Below, piece by piece: positions 2,881-29,509 of a DNA stretch of 31,175 nt. Position numbers and translations under genes: made by a program. Below the pieces are notes generated by a model. That model worked only from the letters and a program-made list of their open reading frames with translations, had not been told where the DNA came from and did not search any database. The first letter of the stretch is position 1. Every line of letters starts with the position of its first letter. The DNA comes from a virus (taxonomy: Duplodnaviria; Caudoviricetes). The stretch is from the IMG/VR virus record IMGVR_UViG_3300032244_000256, positions 1 to 31,175 of that record; one strand, written 5' to 3'.

Positions 2881-4418
2881 TGGCTACAATTTCACTAACA
2901 CTACCAGCAGATGGTCAGACCATTGATGCGTCAGACGTAAACAATCCGTTTAATACGATTGCCGCAGAAATCAACGGTAACCTGGATAACTCAAACATAA
3001 AGGCTGGTGCAGCTATTGATCGTTCTAAGATTGCTGGATTCACTGATGGTTGGGAATCACTTGGCTACTCTCCTTCTACTGTTACAGCTAACGGCAACCG
3101 ATCATACGACCTTACATTCAGCTCAGTTAACCTAACGACTAACATATCTAACGGTATGCGTCTCAAGTTAGCTCGTTCAGTAACTCCTCCTACGCAATGT
3201 ACTGATTTAGAATCGGGAAGTTCTCAGTATTTTTCTAAAACTAGCCCAGCGGGTATGACGTTTACTGATGACTTTACTGCAAGTGCGTGGGTTAAACTGG
3301 AGAGTTATGTAACTGGAACAATTGCCTCTCGTTATAACGGTACAAGTGGATGGGGCCTATACGTTACATCTTCAGGCCAGATACAACTTTCTGGATATAA
3401 TGCGGGTGCTAGTAACGAAAGTAAAGTGTTGTCCTACCAATCTATCCCGCTTAACAAATGGGTACATGTCGCCGCTCAATTAGATATGTCTACTTTTACT
3501 GCCACAACAACCACTTCTTATGTAATGATAGATGGGTTAGATGTTCCAGCCGTCGTCAGTAGAAGTGGGTCAAATCCAACAGCCCTTATCCAAGCAGGTA
3601 ACTTAGAGATAGGTGCTAGTAACGGTGGTACAGCTCCATTCGATGGCAAACTAGCTCAAGTTGCTATCTATTCAGCTAAAGTCACCCAAGCTACGGTTCG
3701 TGCTTCAATGAACCAAACCCTAACAGGCTCAGAAACATCTCTAGTATCCGCTTACTCATTTAACAACGTGATAACAGACCTTAACACTACAAACGCTAAT
3801 AACCTTACAGCTAACGGAAGCGCAGTAGCAACAACTGTCGATTCACCATTTAATGCAACCGAATATGCAATAGTAATGGCAAACTCATTTTCTACTAATA
3901 CTACGCTTACAGTGCAAGTGCCAGAAGGTTATTCACTCCCAACAACTGGAGGAATTGGAACGTGCTATTACTCAACACAAAAAGTTCCTTATGGCTTTCC
4001 AGGACAAAGAGGAAAGTGGGGCCTTCAAATGTTATCGAGAACACAATATTCTCAATCATCGGCAGTAATTAGTACTTGGTACAACATCGGAAGCCATAAG
4101 TTAAATGTTCCGATTGGTTCATGGAAACTTCGCTATGACGTAGGTACATCACACAACCGTACTAGTGGTGCAGCTTCAATATGTTCAACTCTATCAACTG
4201 CCAACAATACTGAGTCAGATAGAAAGTGGACAAGAATATCTAATGCAAATCCTGTAACAGATTCTGACGCTGCCTTTACTGCCGAACATTCTATTGAATT
4301 ATCAGTTGCTACAGACTATTACATAAATATTCTTGCTCTTGCGGTTGCAAGCTCAACCTTGTATACACGAGGAGATAATGCACTCGTTCAGATTTATGCA
4401 GAGTGTGAATTGGTATAA
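2880..4418 (+). CDS. Tail fibre/receptor-binding protein with LamG (concanavalin A-like) domain
   Basis: 512 aa, Ser/Thr-rich; LamG-type motifs FTASAWVK, KWVHVAA, LEIGA, FDGKLAQVAIYS; short N-terminal anchor-like segment. Confidence 0.8.
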   Translation: MATISLTLPADGQTIDASDVNNPFNTIAAEINGNLDNSNIKAGAAIDRSKIAGFTDGWESLGYSPSTVTANGNRSYDLTFSSVNLTTNISNGMRLKLARSVTPPTQCTDLESGSSQYFSKTSPAGMTFTDDFTASAWVKLESYVTGTIASRYNGTSGWGLYVTSSGQIQLSGYNAGASNESKVLSYQSIPLNKWVHVAAQLDMSTFTATTTTSYVMIDGLDVPAVVSRSGSNPTALIQAGNLEIGASNGGTAPFDGKLAQVAIYSAKVTQATVRASMNQTLTGSETSLVSAYSFNNVITDLNTTNANNLTANGSAVATTVDSPFNATEYAIVMANSFSTNTTLTVQVPEGYSLPTTGGIGTCYYSTQKVPYGFPGQRGKWGLQMLSRTQYSQSSAVISTWYNIGSHKLNVPIGSWKLRYDVGTSHNRTSGAASICSTLSTANNTESDRKWTRISNANPVTDSDAAFTAEHSIELSVATDYYINILALAVASSTLYTRGDNALVQIYAECELV

Positions 4419-8599: not shown

Positions 8600-8935
8600 A
8601 TGGAACAAGAAAACTTTTGGTACGGTGAACTTGTAAAACATCTTGAAAAAAAAGAGTGGTCTGAAGTGCAAATCACTAACTTAGCTATGAAGGTAGGACG
8701 CAGCACTATGATGAGTTGTGAAGCTGCAGTAGAACTTCTTGAATATGTGCAAGACGTTGACCAACAAATAGCTGAACAAAAAGAACTAGAAGACTTACAT
8801 GCAACCGCTCCTGTCTATAACAGAGAGCAGGCACTGCAATTGTTTGAGTACAATCAATCGGGAAAGACTTTCGCTGACGCAGGCTGGAACGAAAGAGGTG
8901 AATATACTACCTTTATACCAGGCGAAGAGATATAA
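8600..8935 (+). CDS. Hypothetical protein
   Basis: 111 aa, acidic, AAGGA RBS. Confidence 0.7.
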   Translation: MEQENFWYGELVKHLEKKEWSEVQITNLAMKVGRSTMMSCEAAVELLEYVQDVDQQIAEQKELEDLHATAPVYNREQALQLFEYNQSGKTFADAGWNERGEYTTFIPGEEI

Positions 8936-8936
8936 G

Positions 8937-9356
8937 ATGGAAAAGGAAGACCTATTCACCAAACCAAACGGTGACATAGTGTCCAGACGACAAACAAATA
9001 GACACCATGTCTTCTATCCTGGTTACGAATACCAGAACAAACTAGACCGACGGATGAGAAACCTCGGTCTCTTTGTCATTCGTATGCATATCCCAGTCCA
9101 CAAAGAATTACACAATAACGTACCACCACCTCCAAGTATTGGGCATGATCTAAAGCATATTATCATTCAAGAGAACGAAGCAATGGACAAGGAACTACCT
9201 CAGTCCACTCGGCTTGAACTTATTACCTATCATCTTATGCGACTCGCAGATCACGCCCCGAGTCAGCAGATACAGGAAGAAGCAGACGCACTACACAACA
9301 ACTTTATTCATCAACTAGATTACATCCATAAGGGGAAAGTACAATGGCACGAATAA
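8937..9356 (+). CDS. Hypothetical His-rich protein, possibly HNH-like; start re-assigned to ATG 8937
   Basis: 139 aa from MEKEDLF; NRHHVFYP...HIPVHKELH pattern; this start avoids a long overlap with the upstream gene. Confidence 0.6.
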   Translation: MEKEDLFTKPNGDIVSRRQTNRHHVFYPGYEYQNKLDRRMRNLGLFVIRMHIPVHKELHNNVPPPPSIGHDLKHIIIQENEAMDKELPQSTRLELITYHLMRLADHAPSQQIQEEADALHNNFIHQLDYIHKGKVQWHE

Positions 9357-12290: not shown

Positions 12291-12319
12291 AGTGTAGCAC
12301 GCTGATGCTATTATGTCAA
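12291..12319 (-). promoter_or_regulatory. Sigma70-type early promoter
   Basis: Minus strand TTGACA-N17-TACACT. Confidence 0.8.
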
Positions 12320-12330
12320 GCTTATGCTAA

Positions 12331-12370
12331 TAAAAAAAGTCCCTGGAGTGGTGGGGAAACCAAGGACTTT
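12331..12370 (-). terminator. Intrinsic terminator, possibly ending a ~40-nt sRNA
   Basis: Minus strand AAAGTCCTTGG-13 nt loop-CCAGGGACTTT followed by a T run. Confidence 0.7.
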
Positions 12371-12398
12371 AGCTACATTATACGTTACAATTGCACGT

Positions 12399-12430
12399 AA
12401 ATAAAGAAAGACCCCCAAAAGGAGGTCTTT
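12399..12430 (-). terminator. Intrinsic terminator after ninG
   Basis: Minus strand AAAGACCTCC-TTTT-GGGGGTCTTT-CTTTATTT. Confidence 0.75.
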
Positions 12431-15401: not shown

Positions 15402-15553
15402 TATGCCCCCATTTCTTTGTGATATTCGTAGTCTTCGTCACAGTAACATCCATCTTCATGTACTAACTTGTTTCCGAGGAAGTAACACGTGTCGGATATG
15501 TACTCTGGGACGGTGACATGTATTTTGATCGCTTTCTTAGTCTGGTTATTCAT
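15401..15553 (-). CDS. 50-aa micro-protein with Cys/His cluster
   Basis: MNNQTKKAIKIHVTVPEYISDTCYFLGNKLVHEDGCYCDEDYEYHKEMGA; overlaps both neighbours. Confidence 0.65.
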   Translation of the reverse strand: MNNQTKKAIKIHVTVPEYISDTCYFLGNKLVHEDGCYCDEDYEYHKEMGA

Positions 15554-15681
15554 TCGTAGTTTTCCTCAAGCCAGACAAGGAAGTCTTTTATCTTTGGTTT
15601 AGTTCCGTCACGCTCGCAAATCGCAACGTATAAGTCAAATAAGTTCTCATTAACAGCCTTCGTATCGATATAATCGTCCAT
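15550..15681 (-). CDS. 43-aa micro-protein
   Basis: MDDYIDTKAVNENLFDLYVAICERDGTKPKIKDFLVWLEENYE; GGAGG RBS and TAATG overlap. Confidence 0.65.
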   Translation of the reverse strand: MDDYIDTKAVNENLFDLYVAICERDGTKPKIKDFLVWLEENYE

Positions 15682-15905
15682 TAAAACCCTCCAATTACTG
15701 ACTGCACCAGCATGACAGCTATGTGTACGTTAAAGTACGCAAGTATCATAGTGATAAGTGCCAGCACTAAGAACAATTTGAGTATGCTCTTAATGATTCT
15801 TTTAATATGTTTTAAATGTGCGTAGTTTCTCTTCGGCTTACGACCAAGTACATAGACTCCGCCGCTGTGATTGCCTAAGAAACCATCTCCATTGAGATCA
15901 GTCAC
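15681..15905 (-). CDS. Small membrane protein, first gene of the early operon
   Basis: 74 aa, basic patch followed by a long hydrophobic C-terminus. Confidence 0.6.
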   Translation of the reverse strand: MTDLNGDGFLGNHSGGVYVLGRKPKRNYAHLKHIKRIIKSILKLFLVLALITMILAYFNVHIAVMLVQSVIGGF

Positions 15906-15924
15906 AATCCCCCCTTTTTGTTAT

Positions 15925-16125
15925 TGGTACGCTCAATACTGTCATGAGCCTAACCTTACGCGTTCATGACCGCAGAGCTCTGTTCGGGCTATCTCTTTGA
16001 CAGAATAGAACGTACCATTTTGTTAAAGTTAACGGTGATGGGTAGCAACTTTTAGTTAATTATCCTGCGAGAGTTTCGCTCGCTCTACTACCGTATCCGT
16101 TATTGAAGTGTAAGCTTTATCAGCT
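15925..16125 (-). ncRNA. Candidate structured 5' leader RNA of the early operon
   Basis: Two nested multi-stem domains found by eye; stem mismatches become G-U pairs on the minus strand only. Confidence 0.55.
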
Positions 16126-16132
16126 TGTACTT

Positions 16133-16161
16133 AGTTTACTACAGCATGATGCTGATGTCAA
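16133..16161 (-). promoter_or_regulatory. Sigma70-type early promoter with palindromic spacer
   Basis: Minus strand TTGACA-N17-TAAACT; the spacer contains CAGCAT-C-ATGCTG. Confidence 0.8.
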
Positions 16162-16209
16162 GTACTTTTAATGCTTAATATCATGTAATACTTATGGTAT
16201 ATTCGTACT

Positions 16210-16344
16210 ATGAAACGTCTTAATCAAGAATTAGCACGTAAGCTCATGAAACAAGAAGCTTTTGAGTACATCAAAAAGCGTGAGAAGAAGATTGAGTTAC
16301 TTAAAAAAGGTAAGACTGCCTTTGTAGACACGTTAAAGAAGTAA
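16210..16344 (+). CDS. 44-aa basic helical protein, probably leaderless
   Basis: MKRLNQELARKLMKQEAFEYIKKREKKIELLKKGKTAFVDTLKK; TGgTATATT lies 6 nt before the ATG. Confidence 0.6.
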   Translation: MKRLNQELARKLMKQEAFEYIKKREKKIELLKKGKTAFVDTLKK

Positions 16345-16370: not shown

Positions 16371-16550
16371 TGTGGATAAACCATGTAATATTGTATTGTT
16401 TGTTGACTTGTCAATAAAATATCTTACACTACTATTAACACTATACCGTGTGCGTTGAGCAAACAAACAAGAACCACAAAGCTTAAGAGCAAGGCTGCCA
16501 AACATAAAAGGCAAGCCGCAAGCTCTCTTTATAGCAAACAAACTTACCGT
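16371..16550. other. Non-coding region with DnaA box, direct repeats and hairpin (candidate origin)
   Basis: TGTGGATAA 16371-16379; AGCAAACAAAC at 16458 and 16533; bulged hairpin 16486-16526. Confidence 0.4.
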
Positions 16551-16594
16551 TGCACTTATAAAAGTCTGTAATCCATTATGGTATACTTCCCATT

Positions 16595-17119
16595 ATGAAA
16601 CCTAAACAGACTACTAAGACTACTAAACCATTAAAGAAATACGTCCGTATGAAGGACAGACGCCAAGGCCTAGATGTAACAGAGCGGCCAGTAAAAGAAG
16701 TGACTAACGGTAACCAGTGGACACTTACACCACGCCAGATACGTTTTGTAGAACTGTGGCTCACTCCCAAGTCTCCAACCTTCGGCAACGCCTACCAGTC
16801 AGCTAAGGAAGCAGGCTACTCAGACGGCATGGCCGTTAAGATTACAAGCAAACAACTTTCCCTAGAGTGGGTAGCAGAAGCCAAGAAGCGTTTGATTAAC
16901 CTAGAGCCAAACCACACAGTCAAAGCCCTCGAACACATGGCATTACACGCTAAACAGGACCGCGACCGCATTAAAGCGCTGGAGCTGGTAGGTAAGATAC
17001 AAGGTCTGTTCATAGACAGAAGCATCTCCCATGTGGACGTACAATTCACCAATGAAGTTCCAAGACCAATAATAGACCTCACTAATACACAGAACACGTC
17101 TGAAACAAGCCCAGAATAG
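16595..17119 (+). CDS. terS: Terminase small subunit
   Basis: LTPRQIRFV...GNAYQSAKEAGYS HTH motif and RIKALELVGK; upstream of TerL; TGgTATACT 7 nt before the ATG. Confidence 0.85.
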   Translation: MKPKQTTKTTKPLKKYVRMKDRRQGLDVTERPVKEVTNGNQWTLTPRQIRFVELWLTPKSPTFGNAYQSAKEAGYSDGMAVKITSKQLSLEWVAEAKKRLINLEPNHTVKALEHMALHAKQDRDRIKALELVGKIQGLFIDRSISHVDVQFTNEVPRPIIDLTNTQNTSETSPE

Positions 17120-24058: not shown

Positions 24059-24406
24059 ATGATAGATCCACTAAAACTAGACAAAGCAAACGTAAAAGAA
24101 TACAAAATTCCTAAGGAAGTAGAGCTTCATCCTCGACAAAAGCTAGCATTCCTGGAAGATCAACTAAACCAAATTAAATCACTTCACTGGCGATCACGCG
24201 TAGACATGCTTCACGCTGCACGTCTTCAAGAAGATAGCAACCCTACTCTAAAAGATAAGGGTTACTCTAACATGGCTCAGCACCGCAACGAAGTTCAACA
24301 AACTATCGGCGGTATATTGATGCTTACTAAACTAATTGAAGATCTAAAAAATGAAAACCCAGCAGTCGGCGAAGCAACAGCAGCAGACCACCCAGACGGC
24401 TACTAA
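24059..24406 (+). CDS. Hypothetical helical protein, first gene of the glycosylation cassette
   Basis: 115 aa from ATG 24059 (AAGGGG RBS); coiled-coil-like pattern. Confidence 0.7.
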   Translation: MIDPLKLDKANVKEYKIPKEVELHPRQKLAFLEDQLNQIKSLHWRSRVDMLHAARLQEDSNPTLKDKGYSNMAQHRNEVQQTIGGILMLTKLIEDLKNENPAVGEATAADHPDGY

Positions 24407-25199
24407 ACTAGCTGTCGTATTACCTTCAAGAGGCTTAATGTTCTCTGAGACATTTGAAGAGCTTCTAGGCGAACTTGATGGTATGGACTATGAAATATTC
24501 TGGGCACACGGAAAAAGCCTCCCAGACTGCTTTAATGAGCCCACAGAGCGTGCTTTAAAGGACCCAACAGTCTACGCAGTACTTTTCTGTGAAGATGACA
24601 TGATTTTGCCTAAGGGCATATTGAGAAAGATGTTTGACGCACAATATCCAGTTGTTGCGTTAGACTATCCATTCCAGCAAGATGGCGACTCTACATGCTT
24701 ACACGATCCTGACGGGTTTGCGTTCTGGACTGGGACTGGCTTTATCCTTGTAGCCCGTCCCATTCTCGAACAGCTAGAAAAACCAATCTGGCGTACAAAC
24801 AGAACGTTTGATCCTTTTATTGATAAAGATACTATTCACTTCTGGCCACGCGACTTAAGGAAGGTATACTACGGTTTACATGATCTTAACTTTGGTTTAG
24901 TGCTTTACTCAGCTGGAGTTCCTGTATATCCATTACCTGAGACTGCAGGTCAACGTAAACTTGTAAAACTTGGTGATAAGCACAGTAACAACGGCGCACA
25001 CGACATAAAAGAAATAACTGTTGTCGGAAGAGACCTAGTATCTGGAATGATAGACGTTGAGAATGCACAATTATTTAGGGGCGCGCTTAACAGAGTCAAG
25101 AAAGTTAAATTCTGGGAAGAAACTCCACCATTTATCTCATATGATGAATTTGATCAACCGTATCTAAATGACGGAAGGAAATACGATGTCGTCAGATAG
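24351..25199 (+). CDS. Glycosyltransferase, GT-A/GT2-like
   Basis: AVVLPSRG N-terminal strand, acidic EDDM motif, GTGF, YGLHD. Confidence 0.75.
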   Translation: MKTQQSAKQQQQTTQTATKLAVVLPSRGLMFSETFEELLGELDGMDYEIFWAHGKSLPDCFNEPTERALKDPTVYAVLFCEDDMILPKGILRKMFDAQYPVVALDYPFQQDGDSTCLHDPDGFAFWTGTGFILVARPILEQLEKPIWRTNRTFDPFIDKDTIHFWPRDLRKVYYGLHDLNFGLVLYSAGVPVYPLPETAGQRKLVKLGDKHSNNGAHDIKEITVVGRDLVSGMIDVENAQLFRGALNRVKKVKFWEETPPFISYDEFDQPYLNDGRKYDVVR

Positions 25200-25296
25200 T
25201 AAACTAAACAAAGATAGAAAAGACGTAAAGCCAGCTACTAAGACTGTAGTTATGGGCGGTACAATCGTGACCATTAACTACTGGGTAAAGAAATGA
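25186..25296 (+). CDS. 36-aa micro-ORF, absent from the ORF track
   Basis: MSSDSKLNKDRKDVKPATKTVVMGGTIVTINYWVKK; GGAAGGA RBS; ATGA overlap with the next gene. Confidence 0.55.
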   Translation: MSSDSKLNKDRKDVKPATKTVVMGGTIVTINYWVKK

Positions 25297-26117
25297 AAGT
25301 GGGGGTTATCTTACCCTCTAGGGGTCTGATGTTCTCACAAACTGCAGACGAGCTACTACAAAACCTAAAAGGAATATCACATAAAATATTTTTCTCTCAT
25401 AGGAAACCTATACCTGAGTGTTTCGTTAGTCCTACTAATCGAGCTCTTATAGATAAAGACATCACACACCTATGGTTTGTGGAAGATGACATGGTCCTAC
25501 CTCCTGGTCTATTGCAAGCTATGCTTGACGAGGATGCTAACGCAATTACATGTGATTACCCAGTTACTAAAGACGGAAGAGGATCTGTTTTCTACGATAA
25601 GGGCGGAAGAGTAGTCTTCTCTGGTACTGGCTGTTTGCTGGTTAAAAGAAGAGTCTTTGACAGCCTACGAGAACCATATTTTACCGATAAGGTTAGATGG
25701 ACAATGCTTAACTATGGTGAATCAGTTAAACTCGTTGCAACTAGAAACGATACTAAAGACGGATATGGCTTACACGACATCACGTTCAGCATAAAACTGT
25801 GGAAAGCTGGAATAATCATTAAAGTTCTACCGATTAAACTTGCTCAGCGTAAACTTATTAGCTTAGGTAAAGCAGGTAGCAACAATGGTGCGCACAACAT
25901 TGAAGTCTGGAAGAAAATTGTTAAGAACAAGCGCCTTAAAGCAATTCAAGAACAACCAATCTCACTTGGCGCTAAAACAAAGCTTGTAACAGTAGACACC
26001 CCTACGGGAGCAGTAACAACAAGCCAGAAACACGCAGAAAACCTCGTTAACCAGGGATTAGCTACGTATCCAGCTAAAAGATTTACGATAATAGATGATA
26101 GCGAAGTAGAGATATGA
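25293..26117 (+). CDS. Glycosyltransferase, GT-A/GT2-like, paralog of 24351..25199
   Basis: Shares LPSRGLMFS, EDDM, DYP, GTG, YGLHD and QRKL..LG...SNNGAH.I with it. Confidence 0.75.
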   Translation: MKVGVILPSRGLMFSQTADELLQNLKGISHKIFFSHRKPIPECFVSPTNRALIDKDITHLWFVEDDMVLPPGLLQAMLDEDANAITCDYPVTKDGRGSVFYDKGGRVVFSGTGCLLVKRRVFDSLREPYFTDKVRWTMLNYGESVKLVATRNDTKDGYGLHDITFSIKLWKAGIIIKVLPIKLAQRKLISLGKAGSNNGAHNIEVWKKIVKNKRLKAIQEQPISLGAKTKLVTVDTPTGAVTTSQKHAENLVNQGLATYPAKRFTIIDDSEVEI

Positions 26118-26827
26118 AACTCTTGATTACGATGATTACCTATAACCGTCTTCAATACACGAAGAAGACGCTGCGTAGTTTATGGGCGACGATTCAAGTC
26201 CCATATTTTCTGATAATCGTTGATAATGCATCAACTGACGGCACACAAGCATATCTAGCTAATTTAGTTGAGCGTAACAGAGCTAATCAAGTTATCTTTA
26301 ATGATAAGAACCTATATCCTGGTAAAGCTACAAATATTGGCTGGACTGAAGGACTTGAAGAGTATTCTGAAGCAACACACCTTATGCGTCTTGATAACGA
26401 CATGCATTTTGAAAAAGGCTGGGATGCTATGGCGGAAAATTATTTTAAGAACATCGACAGGCTTGGTCAGCTTGGACTAGATTTTGACGGCGGAGAAAAC
26501 AAGATGCCGCAATACTACAATGGGATGGGACTAGTCGAATGGCCAGGTTGTGTTGGTGGACCAAACATCATAAAACGTTCTATCTTTGAATCTGGTATTC
26601 GTTATGACGAGACACCTTGGGAAGGTTCACGTTCTCGCATGCAAGAGGATAGCAAATTCTCACGAGAAATAAAGAAAGATGGATGGCTAGTTGGTCATAT
26701 GGACGAACGATTAAGCTGGACATTTGCTACTAAAGAAAATTGGAAAGACTACCCAGATTACTACAAGAAAACTATGTATGACCGTGGTTATGATGACGAA
26801 CTTAAATATTTGGAGACATTAGAATGA
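26114..26827 (+). CDS. Glycosyltransferase family 2
   Basis: ITYNR, IIVDNASTDGT, LDND (DxD), ED motif. Confidence 0.9.
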   Translation: MKLLITMITYNRLQYTKKTLRSLWATIQVPYFLIIVDNASTDGTQAYLANLVERNRANQVIFNDKNLYPGKATNIGWTEGLEEYSEATHLMRLDNDMHFEKGWDAMAENYFKNIDRLGQLGLDFDGGENKMPQYYNGMGLVEWPGCVGGPNIIKRSIFESGIRYDETPWEGSRSRMQEDSKFSREIKKDGWLVGHMDERLSWTFATKENWKDYPDYYKKTMYDRGYDDELKYLETLE

Positions 26828-27894
26828 AAACAGTTCTTATTACTGGTGTTGGCGGTTTTATGGGTAGTCATACCCTACGACACGTGTTAACGACGACTGA
26901 CTGGAAGATTATCGGTATTGATTCATTCAGGCACATGGGTAAAACCGACCGTATCACACAACAACTTAGTGACCAAGATCTATCCCGTTTAACATTGATT
27001 AGGCATGATCTCACTGTTCCTTTTAGCGAGCAGTTTGAACAAAAACTAAAAGATATTGACTATGTACTTAACATAGCGTCAGAGAGCCACGTAGACCGCT
27101 CAATAACCGATCCTAGAGAATTTACCGAGAACAACGTTGCGTTGATATTAACAATGCTTGAATGGCTTAAGAAACGTAATAATACACCAATACCTTGCAA
27201 TAACTTCCCAGTATGTGACGACGGATATCCAGGTAATCACTCTCACTTCAATCCTGTAAAGTCATTTATCCACATCTCAACCGATGAAGTATATGGTCCC
27301 GCTACTGATCACAACCACAAAGAAGGTGAACCGTATCGCCCAAGTAATCCGTATTCAGCGTCAAAAGCCGCACAAGAAGCTATTTGCTACGCATACTGGA
27401 GAACCTACAACCTTCCAATAGTTATCACCAATACCATGAACATTATTGGAGAAATGCAGGATCCTGAGAAATTTGTACCGAAAGTCATGAAGCAAATTGC
27501 CAATGGAGAAAAAGTTACCATTCACGCTAGCAAAGACGGACAACCAGGATCTCGATATTATTTACATGCGCGTAACCAAGCAGACGCATTATGTTTCTTA
27601 TTAAAGAATATCGTTCCTACTCGCTACCCAGCAAAAGATTTAGACCGCTTTAACATAGTCGGAGAAAAAGAAGTCAATAATTTAGAGATGGCTGAATTGA
27701 TAGCTAAATTCTACGGAGCAGAACTCAATTATGAGTTAGTTGATTTTCACTCATCACGCCCTGGACATGACCTACGTTATGGACTAGATAATACTAAACT
27801 TAAAGAACTGGGGTGGGTGGCCCCATTCAGCTTTGAAGAAAGTCTGAAATCAACCATAGAATGGACAAAGAATCACCCAGAATGGCTCCTATGA
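26824..27894 (+). CDS. rfbB: dTDP-glucose 4,6-dehydratase (RmlB/RfbB-like SDR)
   Basis: TGVGGFMG, ASESHVDRSI, HISTDEVYG, PYSASKA, RPGHDLRY. Confidence 0.9.
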   Translation: MKTVLITGVGGFMGSHTLRHVLTTTDWKIIGIDSFRHMGKTDRITQQLSDQDLSRLTLIRHDLTVPFSEQFEQKLKDIDYVLNIASESHVDRSITDPREFTENNVALILTMLEWLKKRNNTPIPCNNFPVCDDGYPGNHSHFNPVKSFIHISTDEVYGPATDHNHKEGEPYRPSNPYSASKAAQEAICYAYWRTYNLPIVITNTMNIIGEMQDPEKFVPKVMKQIANGEKVTIHASKDGQPGSRYYLHARNQADALCFLLKNIVPTRYPAKDLDRFNIVGEKEVNNLEMAELIAKFYGAELNYELVDFHSSRPGHDLRYGLDNTKLKELGWVAPFSFEESLKSTIEWTKNHPEWLL

Positions 27895-28556
27895 TTAGCA
27901 TACTTATACCAACTAGAAAACGTCCACATAACATTCAACGATTATGGGACTCAATTGTGAGGACAGTGCGCAATCCACTAGACATTGAGTTGGTTCTATA
28001 CATAGATGAAGATGACGACTCATACGACAATATAAAAGTCCCATTCAAAAAGGTTAGTGGCAAACGCATTGTGTTAAGTGATATGTGGAACGTCTGTGCT
28101 AAAGAAGCTTGCTACGACATTATGATGTACTGTGGTGACGATATAGTTTTTCGCTCAAAAAATTGGGATCGTAAAGTTATAGAAACATTTGATCAGTTTG
28201 AAGATAAGATAGCATACGTCTTCGGTAGAGACGGATCAGTCCACGATCGCATATATGGCACTCATGGCTTTGTACACAGAAATTGGTTTAAGGCTTTAGG
28301 CTATATCTGTCCACCAGTATTTTCTGGTGATTACTCAGATACCTGGATAAACGTTGTCGCTAGACTTATAGATCGACATATCTACATTGATATCTTTACT
28401 GAACATATGCACCCAGATTTCGCTAAAACTGAACTTGATGATACTTACCGAGAGAAGTATGATCGAATGATTAAGGATAAAACAGCTGACATCTATTTCA
28501 GTATGGCTAATGAGAGATATGATGATGCGGCCAAACTTAGAAAGGTAATGAAATGA
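27891..28556 (+). CDS. Glycosyltransferase, GT2-like; start at 27891 or 27882
   Basis: ISILIPTRKR, YIDEDD, CGDDI, YSDTW, EHMHP. Confidence 0.8.
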   Translation: MISILIPTRKRPHNIQRLWDSIVRTVRNPLDIELVLYIDEDDDSYDNIKVPFKKVSGKRIVLSDMWNVCAKEACYDIMMYCGDDIVFRSKNWDRKVIETFDQFEDKIAYVFGRDGSVHDRIYGTHGFVHRNWFKALGYICPPVFSGDYSDTWINVVARLIDRHIYIDIFTEHMHPDFAKTELDDTYREKYDRMIKDKTADIYFSMANERYDDAAKLRKVMK

Positions 28557-29509
28557 AAATAGCAGTACTTGGTGGTGGTGGATTTATAGGATGTAACTTA
28601 GTAAGTTATCTGAAAGACCAAGGTCATTTTGTTCGTGCTGTAGATAAGAAGTTTCCTATGTTCCGTAAAGAGATGTGGGACAAGGCTGACGAAGTCGAAG
28701 TAGCTGATTTACGCGAATATGATGAAGTACATGACGCATTACTCGATATTGATTGGGTCGTACAATTAGCGGCTGACATGGGTGGTGTTGGCTATTTCCA
28801 CGGCGGACATGATTATTATCCATATCTAAGTAGCCATCAGATAAATCTCAATGTACTACAAGTAATGGAAGAATTAGAAATACCACGGTTATTCTTTTCG
28901 GCATCAGCTTGTATATATCCAACGCATCTCAATGACAATACGGACAGCCCAATATTAACTGAAGAAATGATCTATCCAGCAAACTGTGACATGAGTTACG
29001 GATGGGAAAAACTAATGACCCTTCGTCTATGCGAGAGGGCGCCATTTGATGCACGCGTTGGTATCTTTGACACTATCTACGGTCCTTACCAAGAAAAGCA
29101 CGGCGATCGCATGAAGTTCCCCACAGCAATATCTACTAAAGTAATTAAATCGGCTGAGACTGGTGAACCAATTGAAATCTGGGGAGACGGTACACAACAA
29201 CGAGTATTTCTTTACATTGATGACGCCGTTAAAAAGATCTATAACATTTTAAGCAGTGATGTATACGACGGCCCAGTTAACGTTGCTTCAGAGACAGAGG
29301 TTAATGTTAAACAGATAGCTGATCTATGCTGCGATATTGTGGGCAAACCCGAACTCAAGGAAAGTTATAAGTTCCTGCTCGATAAACCATCTGGCGTTAT
29401 GTCACGCAGAACAAGTGGAAAAAAATACGATACATTATACGGTAAAATTAACGAAACCACACCCAAAGAAGGTTTTGAGAAGATGATAAACTGGCTTCTC
29501 TCATTATGA
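28553..29509 (+). CDS. NAD-dependent epimerase, GDP-mannose 3,5-epimerase-like
   Basis: GGGGFIG, LAADMGG.GY, SASACIYP, YGWEK (YxxxK), IEIWGDG.Q.R.FLYIDD. Confidence 0.85.
   Translation: MKIAVLGGGGFIGCNLVSYLKDQGHFVRAVDKKFPMFRKEMWDKADEVEVADLREYDEVHDALLDIDWVVQLAADMGGVGYFHGGHDYYPYLSSHQINLNVLQVMEELEIPRLFFSASACIYPTHLNDNTDSPILTEEMIYPANCDMSYGWEKLMTLRLCERAPFDARVGIFDTIYGPYQEKHGDRMKFPTAISTKVIKSAETGEPIEIWGDGTQQRVFLYIDDAVKKIYNILSSDVYDGPVNVASETEVNVKQIADLCCDIVGKPELKESYKFLLDKPSGVMSRRTSGKKYDTLYGKINETTPKEGFEKMINWLLSL

Follow-up and report, generated by a model that had tools for sequence, protein, structure and literature searches.

To our knowledge, antiterminators consisting of RNA alone are known from few phages, and we know of almost nothing that has been learned about gene control in the phages of the ultra-small Patescibacteria. 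The put RNA of phage HK022, as described in PMC9378689, lies downstream of early promoters, spans about 70 nt and binds the zinc-binding domain of the beta-prime subunit. The KH domains of NusA, according to PMC2724277, bind short single-stranded RNA rich in A and U, with AUA being critical in the mycobacterial complex. Here we analyze a structured RNA that heads the leftward early operon of a phage, divergent from the small terminase gene, and compare it with these systems.

The stretch of DNA under analysis, hereafter called the window, is the whole 31,175-nt linear virus record IMGVR_UViG_3300032244_000256, which is 79% complete and carries genes for terminase, portal, capsid, endolysin, exonuclease and NinG. 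The likely hosts of the phages carrying the RNA are Saccharibacteria, judging from the relatives of the exonuclease (one named after a Saccharibacteria genome, another located in a Saccharibacteria MAG) together with the large terminase, which finds matches in 3 of 301 host-class genomes. One of these matches is 50% identical to the window's terminase and belongs to a prophage that lies amid host genes on an 890-kb contig, namely in the Saccharimonadia-class chromosome G242:C1 around 470000-495000 (L178, L179); a copy of the RNA was not found in the G242 genome. Two other large terminase genes appear to be interrupted (L027, 1941-3789, and G001:C64, 8174-10447), one open reading frame turning to unrelated sequence past the Walker A region and the other forming a 760-aa frame, and the inserts are possibly intron- or intein-like. 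The cluster of glycosyltransferase-like and nucleotide-sugar epimerase genes that lies 3' of the capsid gene (window 24351-29509), also present in kin lacking the RNA, possibly serves virion glycosylation.

Table 1. Early leader of the window and the features adjoining it, listed from the promoter in the direction of transcription.
Feature	Position in window	Strand	Basis or remark
Early sigma-70-type promoter (TTGACA, 17 nt, TAAACT)	16133..16161	-	Predicted start near 16126
Small 5' hairpin P0	16112..16126	-	Fold prediction
Domain 1: P1 (16097-16102/16030-16035) and P2 (16086-16092/16041-16047), closing the conserved core	16030..16102	-	Pair probabilities and covariation
P3 hairpin with T-loop-like loop CGNAA and two extruded bases CU	16067..16083	-	Alignment; T-loop inferred from sequence
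A-rich junction: GAUAA, 1-2 variable bases, AACUAA, 1 variable base, AG	16048..16066	-	Alignment
Domain 2: long irregular stem (10 bp, 4x4 loop, 6 bp, upper stem, apical loops)	15925..16017	-	Fold
A-rich linker and G-rich Shine-Dalgarno-like site (15909-15914), outside both domains	15906..15924	-	Sequence and folds
74-aa orphan ORF with basic N-terminus and hydrophobic C-terminus	15681..15905	-	Similarity search found only itself
43-aa gene, first early gene in relatives lacking the RNA; 3' edge of the cassette	15550..15681	-	Comparison of relatives

The near-consensus promoter that a sequence-only reading had placed before the RNA is indeed present (TTGACA-17-TAAACT, 16161-16133), and 27 of its 30 bases are identical in the relatives L054 and L070. 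An inverted repeat in its spacer (16142-16154) is broken in these same two relatives and was discarded. Hairpins of differing sequence occupy the 5' position in several homologues, with none in the L104 clade. At the other end of the leader, the 74-aa ORF was considered as a relative of the small first gene of L090, and the two do not align. On the divergent side, a 44-aa basic ORF (16195-16344) and the small terminase gene (16578-17119) both start about 6 nt past an extended -10-like site, which suggests that their mRNAs may be leaderless.

All seven helices that had been proposed for the two domains, including an alternative one, can be formed at the proposed positions, and the mismatches of both long stems do read as G-U on the minus strand only, a polarity that favours this strand. 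The helices of domain 1 have pair probabilities of 0.81-1.0, as have the outer stems of domain 2; the inner pairing proposed for domain 2 (15947-15950 with 15987-15990) reaches only 0.06-0.11, since the predicted fold prefers 15987-15991 with 15951-15955. The alternative helix (15941-15947 with 15964-15970), proposed as mutually exclusive with domain 2, has a pair probability of 0.01 and belongs to a domain whose sequence cannot be aligned among homologues; it appears because the palindrome TCATGA is present twice. The folding energy of the minus strand is lower than that of shuffled controls (z -2.87, 0 of 200 shuffles; z -1.99 for the plus strand), but such values are ordinary for this genome: of 282 windows tiled along it with 12 shuffles each, 11 fall below z -2.5, and the tile holding the RNA scores -1.97 (minus) and -2.65 (plus). 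We thus rejected the folding z-score as proof of an RNA. (The most stable fold of the genome, with z -5.3 on the minus and -4.8 on the plus strand, is found at 8866-9085 within the ORF 8799-9356, where there are several hairpins, one of them having a U tract when read on the minus strand.)

Homologues were sought by several routes. Loci reached via the exonuclease and terminase came first, and in the close relatives they show the early promoter followed by a leader of 25-40 nt only. When 37 further loci were searched with a model built on the single window sequence, one of them matched, namely L082 (34.8 bits, E 2.4e-4), in which the stems are changed yet paired. A pattern in which only the loop and junction were fixed hit 9 viral loci, of which 7 are true (5 distinct) and 2 were dropped, whereas a pattern with only the hairpin fixed hit 76, including 12 true loci (10 distinct) scoring 60-77 bits; the other 64 are chance matches with 25.4 bits or less, the scoring model having been built from the true members themselves. 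Each of these scans left free what the other had fixed and still recovered it, so that selection bias is limited, though not removed. Two patterns copied from the window gave chance matches only, at 1 and 3 loci in viral contigs, and no match in metagenomes. The total amounts to 12 distinct homologous sequences including the window, all in uncultured phages, five of which form one clade with a mean column identity of 89%. Nothing genuine emerged from 401 and 151 host-class genomes searched with blastn and the one-sequence model (short matches in 2 of the 401 are at chance level, one spanning the promoter and 5' hairpin); the domain 1 model had no match in the 151, and the pattern matched once in the 401, by chance. 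Five related records gave no match to the RNA, and neither did 88 of the 90 sources searched, a good many of which are short pieces ending before the promoter.

The alignment of domain 1 in the 12 sequences has 54 columns, 23 of them invariant and 6 nearly so (29/54 fixed), an invariance that is partly built in because members were chosen with sequence patterns. Across its twelve pairs, 91.0% of the 144 cells pair, compared with 21-46% in controls with slid partners, over which the structure is favoured by having first been drawn from the window sequence. Changes on both sides affect 8 of the 12 pairs and 28 cells, counts that are raised by related rows (5 of the 12 sequences belonging to one clade), and none of 500 shuffles reaches any of the measures. 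All 7 pairs of P2 change on both sides, with four pair types in the stem, and one pair of the P3 stem covaries through five pair types in 12/12 sequences; RNAalifold recovers the same two stems. These patterns in P3 and P2 are hard to explain without real pairing. We conclude that the RNA is real, the evidence being the covariation among homologues, with folding energy contributing little. The earlier proposal of a structured minus-strand RNA heading the early operon is thereby borne out, while the element of about 220 nt it described shrinks, as a conserved unit, to domain 1 with its roughly 55-75 nt.

Within this unit, the P3 loop reads CGNAA-CU in 12/12 sequences, its third base being A in five, G in three, C in three and U in one, and we infer that it takes the tertiary fold of a T-loop. 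The trinucleotide AUA is present in 11 of the 12 junctions, a weak point given that the junction is an A-rich 19-mer; in a drinking-water contig from run X3, the 3 listed differences fall on variable junction columns, at a depth of 2.2 and possibly as errors. The fixed bases of loop and junction imply a tertiary fold that presents a surface to some partner, and the conserved junction is predicted to form the binding surface.

Fixed junction bases combined with a T-loop-like loop are typical of aptamers, and phage intergenic DNA is a setting of self-cleaving ribozymes. Domain 1 has the former combination, with T-loop features as given in PMC4810234, and could thus be a riboswitch-like aptamer that senses a metabolite or ion of the host and times early expression. 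We consider this quite unlikely: neither a terminator nor an alternative sequestering the Shine-Dalgarno site is common to the homologues, the downstream genes have no common function, Rfam offers no match and the proposed switch helix has the probability of 0.01 given above. A self-cleaving ribozyme of a new kind, or a processing site that matures the early transcript, is a very unlikely identity for domain 1; the small and highly conserved core situated between phage genes would suit such a function, but no Rfam ribozyme matches, the alignment contains no covarying pseudoknot and the strict tie to a promoter would be unexpected.

In most members domain 2 folds into a long stem, with z values from -0.9 to -7.1 over the 124 nt following domain 1, and is short or absent in L148. 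It aligns by structure in L082 and L096, and in the five-member clade, where the RNA extends to about 300 nt, 9 of the 77 predicted pairs have changed on both sides. Comparison of the sequences thus indicates that domain 2 keeps its shape rather than its sequence.

The RNA is closely linked to promoters. A strong sigma-70 promoter, matching at least 10 of 12 positions, lies within 150 nt upstream of 11 of the 12 homologues as against 60 of 2400 random positions, the contig of the twelfth, L082, beginning 74 nt upstream. All 8 virus records searched, of which four are complete, have one strong copy each, as has the window. The first genes after the RNA are unrelated among carriers, so that the element goes with the promoter and not with a gene. 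In all predicted transcripts the RNA comes first, with an A-rich linker and an open Shine-Dalgarno site behind it, and in 7 of the 12 sequences it leads straight into the ribosome-binding site. Such an arrangement is also what one would expect if the RNA were a 5' stabiliser or translation enhancer, its compact fold blocking 5' exonucleases or recruiting ribosomes. Among 47 distinct short promoter leaders from these phages, moreover, 8 contain the junction word ACTAA, compared with 2.4 in shuffles (6/2000; a post hoc observation on the third-ranked 5-mer). This explanation nevertheless seems unlikely to us, since a plain 5' hairpin would suffice for it, leaving the fixed loop and junction unexplained, and since the five-member clade has a second promoter between the RNA and the first gene.

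The distribution of the RNA is patchy, for it is absent from the closest relatives of the window. In L054, L070 and L052, the exonucleases of which are 70-78% identical to that of the window, the promoter stands directly before the 43-aa gene, and the roughly 410 nt that the window has in addition after the promoter comprise the RNA and the 74-aa orphan ORF, which is missing together with it. A portal tree of 15 rows places the window, with full support, among non-carriers and rejects a single clade of the 7 carriers (p-AU 2e-12, with one long branch present). Kin that have the promoter and lack the RNA, together with this tree, make it likely that the RNA cassette moves between phages. Transfer into the lineage of the window is the simpler reading, repeated loss being a less simple way to the same pattern, in a comparison where some non-carrier records are incomplete. 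Among the carriers one lineage is common, with 167 members in its portal cluster. Just before the early promoter of three relatives lacking the RNA (L012, approximately 3830-3950; L015, 4370-4480; L009, 3140-3230) there is a short unit running from promoter to terminator, possibly a small RNA gene.

Gain or loss in the manner of the small accessory genes nearby would equally befit an RNA that is itself the early "gene", in a cassette of promoter plus RNA whose domain 1 would act in trans, binding a host protein or serving as its decoy, for instance for host takeover or counter-defence, with domain 2 providing stability. The five-member clade points in this direction, its multi-domain RNA of 300 nt lying between its own promoter and the next one, and so does one neighbour gene with a weak anti-restriction match (E 5e-4); the scarcity of terminators downstream is consistent with a role that needs none. 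Against such a role, no intrinsic terminator follows the RNA in any of the 8 carrier records scanned, and there is the direct run into the ribosome-binding site in seven sequences. Nor was a mimicked host RNA found in the 23S rRNA of G242 (one host-class locus), in the 151 genomes searched by model or, apart from the single chance match, in the 401 searched by pattern. On balance we regard an action in trans as a close rival of the reading that follows, though a rather less likely one.

The reading we prefer, with a probability of about 0.35, is that domain 1 acts in the manner of put and nut, as a nascent RNA, on the host RNA polymerase or NusA. The RNA would be transcribed from the early promoter, and the compact domain 1 would bind the host transcription complex (RNA polymerase or NusA) while being made; this binding might then help polymerase to traverse the early operon with no phage protein involved, as with HK022 put, whereas domain 2 and the A-rich linker would be a variable spacer or stabiliser that leaves the first ribosome-binding site open. 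When proteins from ORFs of at least 40 aa were compared all against all between 8 carriers and 11 non-carriers, no family proved to be present in all carriers and in no non-carrier (one terminase family is found in 6 carriers, the window not among them), and the partner would therefore be the host's. Candidates for this role exist: NusA, NusB and RpoC each score over the cut-off in 5 of 5 sampled host-class genomes, and the cysteines of the beta-prime zinc-binding domain are present in both host-class RpoC sequences read.

Other findings count against antitermination. Rho scores over the cut-off in 0 of the 5 genomes, and a strict scan covering up to 7 kb downstream in the 8 carrier records returned 4 terminators, of which three, namely the two of the window and the one of G410, are followed at once by a fresh promoter. 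The two in the window stand in tandem at 12291-12430, ahead of the promoter of a transglycosylase cluster. A looser scan gave 0-5 terminator candidates per record; weak NusA-dependent terminators, as known from work on Bacillus, would escape scans of this kind. In G406 and G412 a promoter lies about 280 nt after the core, with four more beyond. In many close relatives, furthermore, this promoter drives the same operon with a leader of just 25-40 nt. The likeness to HK022 put proposed by the sequence-only reading stays the leading guess, weakened by the fact that few terminators need reading through.

We think it highly improbable that the transcript primes or controls phage DNA replication in a manner like that of ColE1. 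No recognisable initiator was seen among the window proteins scanned, and a run of six G follows domain 2 with a DnaA box at 16371; but the G run is the Shine-Dalgarno site and is not conserved, several carriers encode helicase- or primase-like proteins, the record of the window is incomplete, and kin lacking the RNA have the rest of the region too. The DnaA box (16371-16379) is perfect and lies in the interval from the early promoter to the small terminase gene; G408 and G411 also have such a box, 112 nt upstream of the core, L009 has one close to its early promoter, and these boxes may mark an origin or control site dependent on host DnaA. In L012 (4100-4603), a 144-aa ORF preceded by a run of GTTA repeats takes the place of the window's lone 44-aa ORF; this is possibly an initiator gene with iterons that is missing from the window.

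More broadly, and still tentatively, the RNA could represent a new class of protein-free, horizontally mobile effectors in Saccharibacteria phages, in which a T-loop-containing module of 55 nt takes hold of the host's transcription complex or of some other core protein. If so, such a module would be swapped between unrelated phages like an accessory gene, and it would provide a second independent fold of RNA-only antiterminator after put, in a host that has no Rho. The class of RNA-only antiterminators would gain breadth from such a fold, while a role in trans would make this a rare accessory gene made of RNA. The compact and well-aligned RNA with its fixed bases makes in vitro work possible without culture of the host, and transcript data should be reachable since one carrier lineage is common.

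The RNA is apparently an undescribed family of probable Saccharibacteria phages. As in the sequence-only reading, no known family can be assigned: cmscan of the window against Rfam 15 gave 0 matches at the gathering score (one off-target miRNA match, E 0.67, lies on the other strand), and a scan of 6 homologue loci gave 0 at E up to 5. With blastn the RNA has no meaningful match in 50,697 annotated phage records or in plasmids. Resemblances to the group I intron, glycine, cobalamin, T-box, HEARO and raiA RNAs were considered, but none gave an Rfam match, and the sequence words that had suggested the intron and HEARO are not retained by the homologues. A mycobacterial NusA-site sequence may resemble the junction, though it was not found in the literature searched. 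The literature searches yielded no description of this RNA; its core words are absent from four supplement tables of a survey of structured phage RNAs (PMC10690425), the alignments of which may hold the motif unnamed.

The RNA can be compared with several described systems. The T-loops of tRNA, RNase P and T-box RNAs (PMC4810234) likewise have a loop of five bases with a free third position and two extra bases before the stem resumes; position 1 is typically U, whereas it is C here (C-A in 12/12), U being typical and not obligatory. No second T-loop or docking base is seen in the present RNA. The PeSL cassettes of T4-type phages (PMC2839356) similarly are units of promoter plus structure in a variable early region with gene shuffling, but their stems are terminators in many copies per genome, in contrast to the single copy, fixed tertiary-type core and lack of a U tract seen here. 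The lambda nut and rrn leader signals (boxA, boxB and spacer; PMC2724277) are also close to the promoter and combine a capped hairpin with A/U-rich single-stranded RNA. Unlike the single-stranded boxA of nut, the boxA-like CUCU is found here in the end of the loop and the stem of P3, next to the pair that covaries in 12/12 sequences, and in place of lambda N there is no N-like family common to the carriers, although short or divergent arginine-rich peptides could escape detection.

HK022 putL and putR (PMC9378689) share with the RNA a structured element downstream of an early phage promoter (here in 11/12), independence of any gene and a similar core size, and put needs no phage protein, just as the 8 carriers compared here have no phage partner family in common. 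The put RNA, by the same account, consists of two adjacent stem-loops, is present in two copies per genome after both early promoters and belongs to enterobacterial lambdoid phages; the RNA described here has nested P1, P2 and P3 with a 19-nt junction and then a separate variable domain, occurs once per record and resides in phages of a host that likely lacks Rho. These differences in structure and copy number set it apart from the put RNAs, although its mode of action may be similar.
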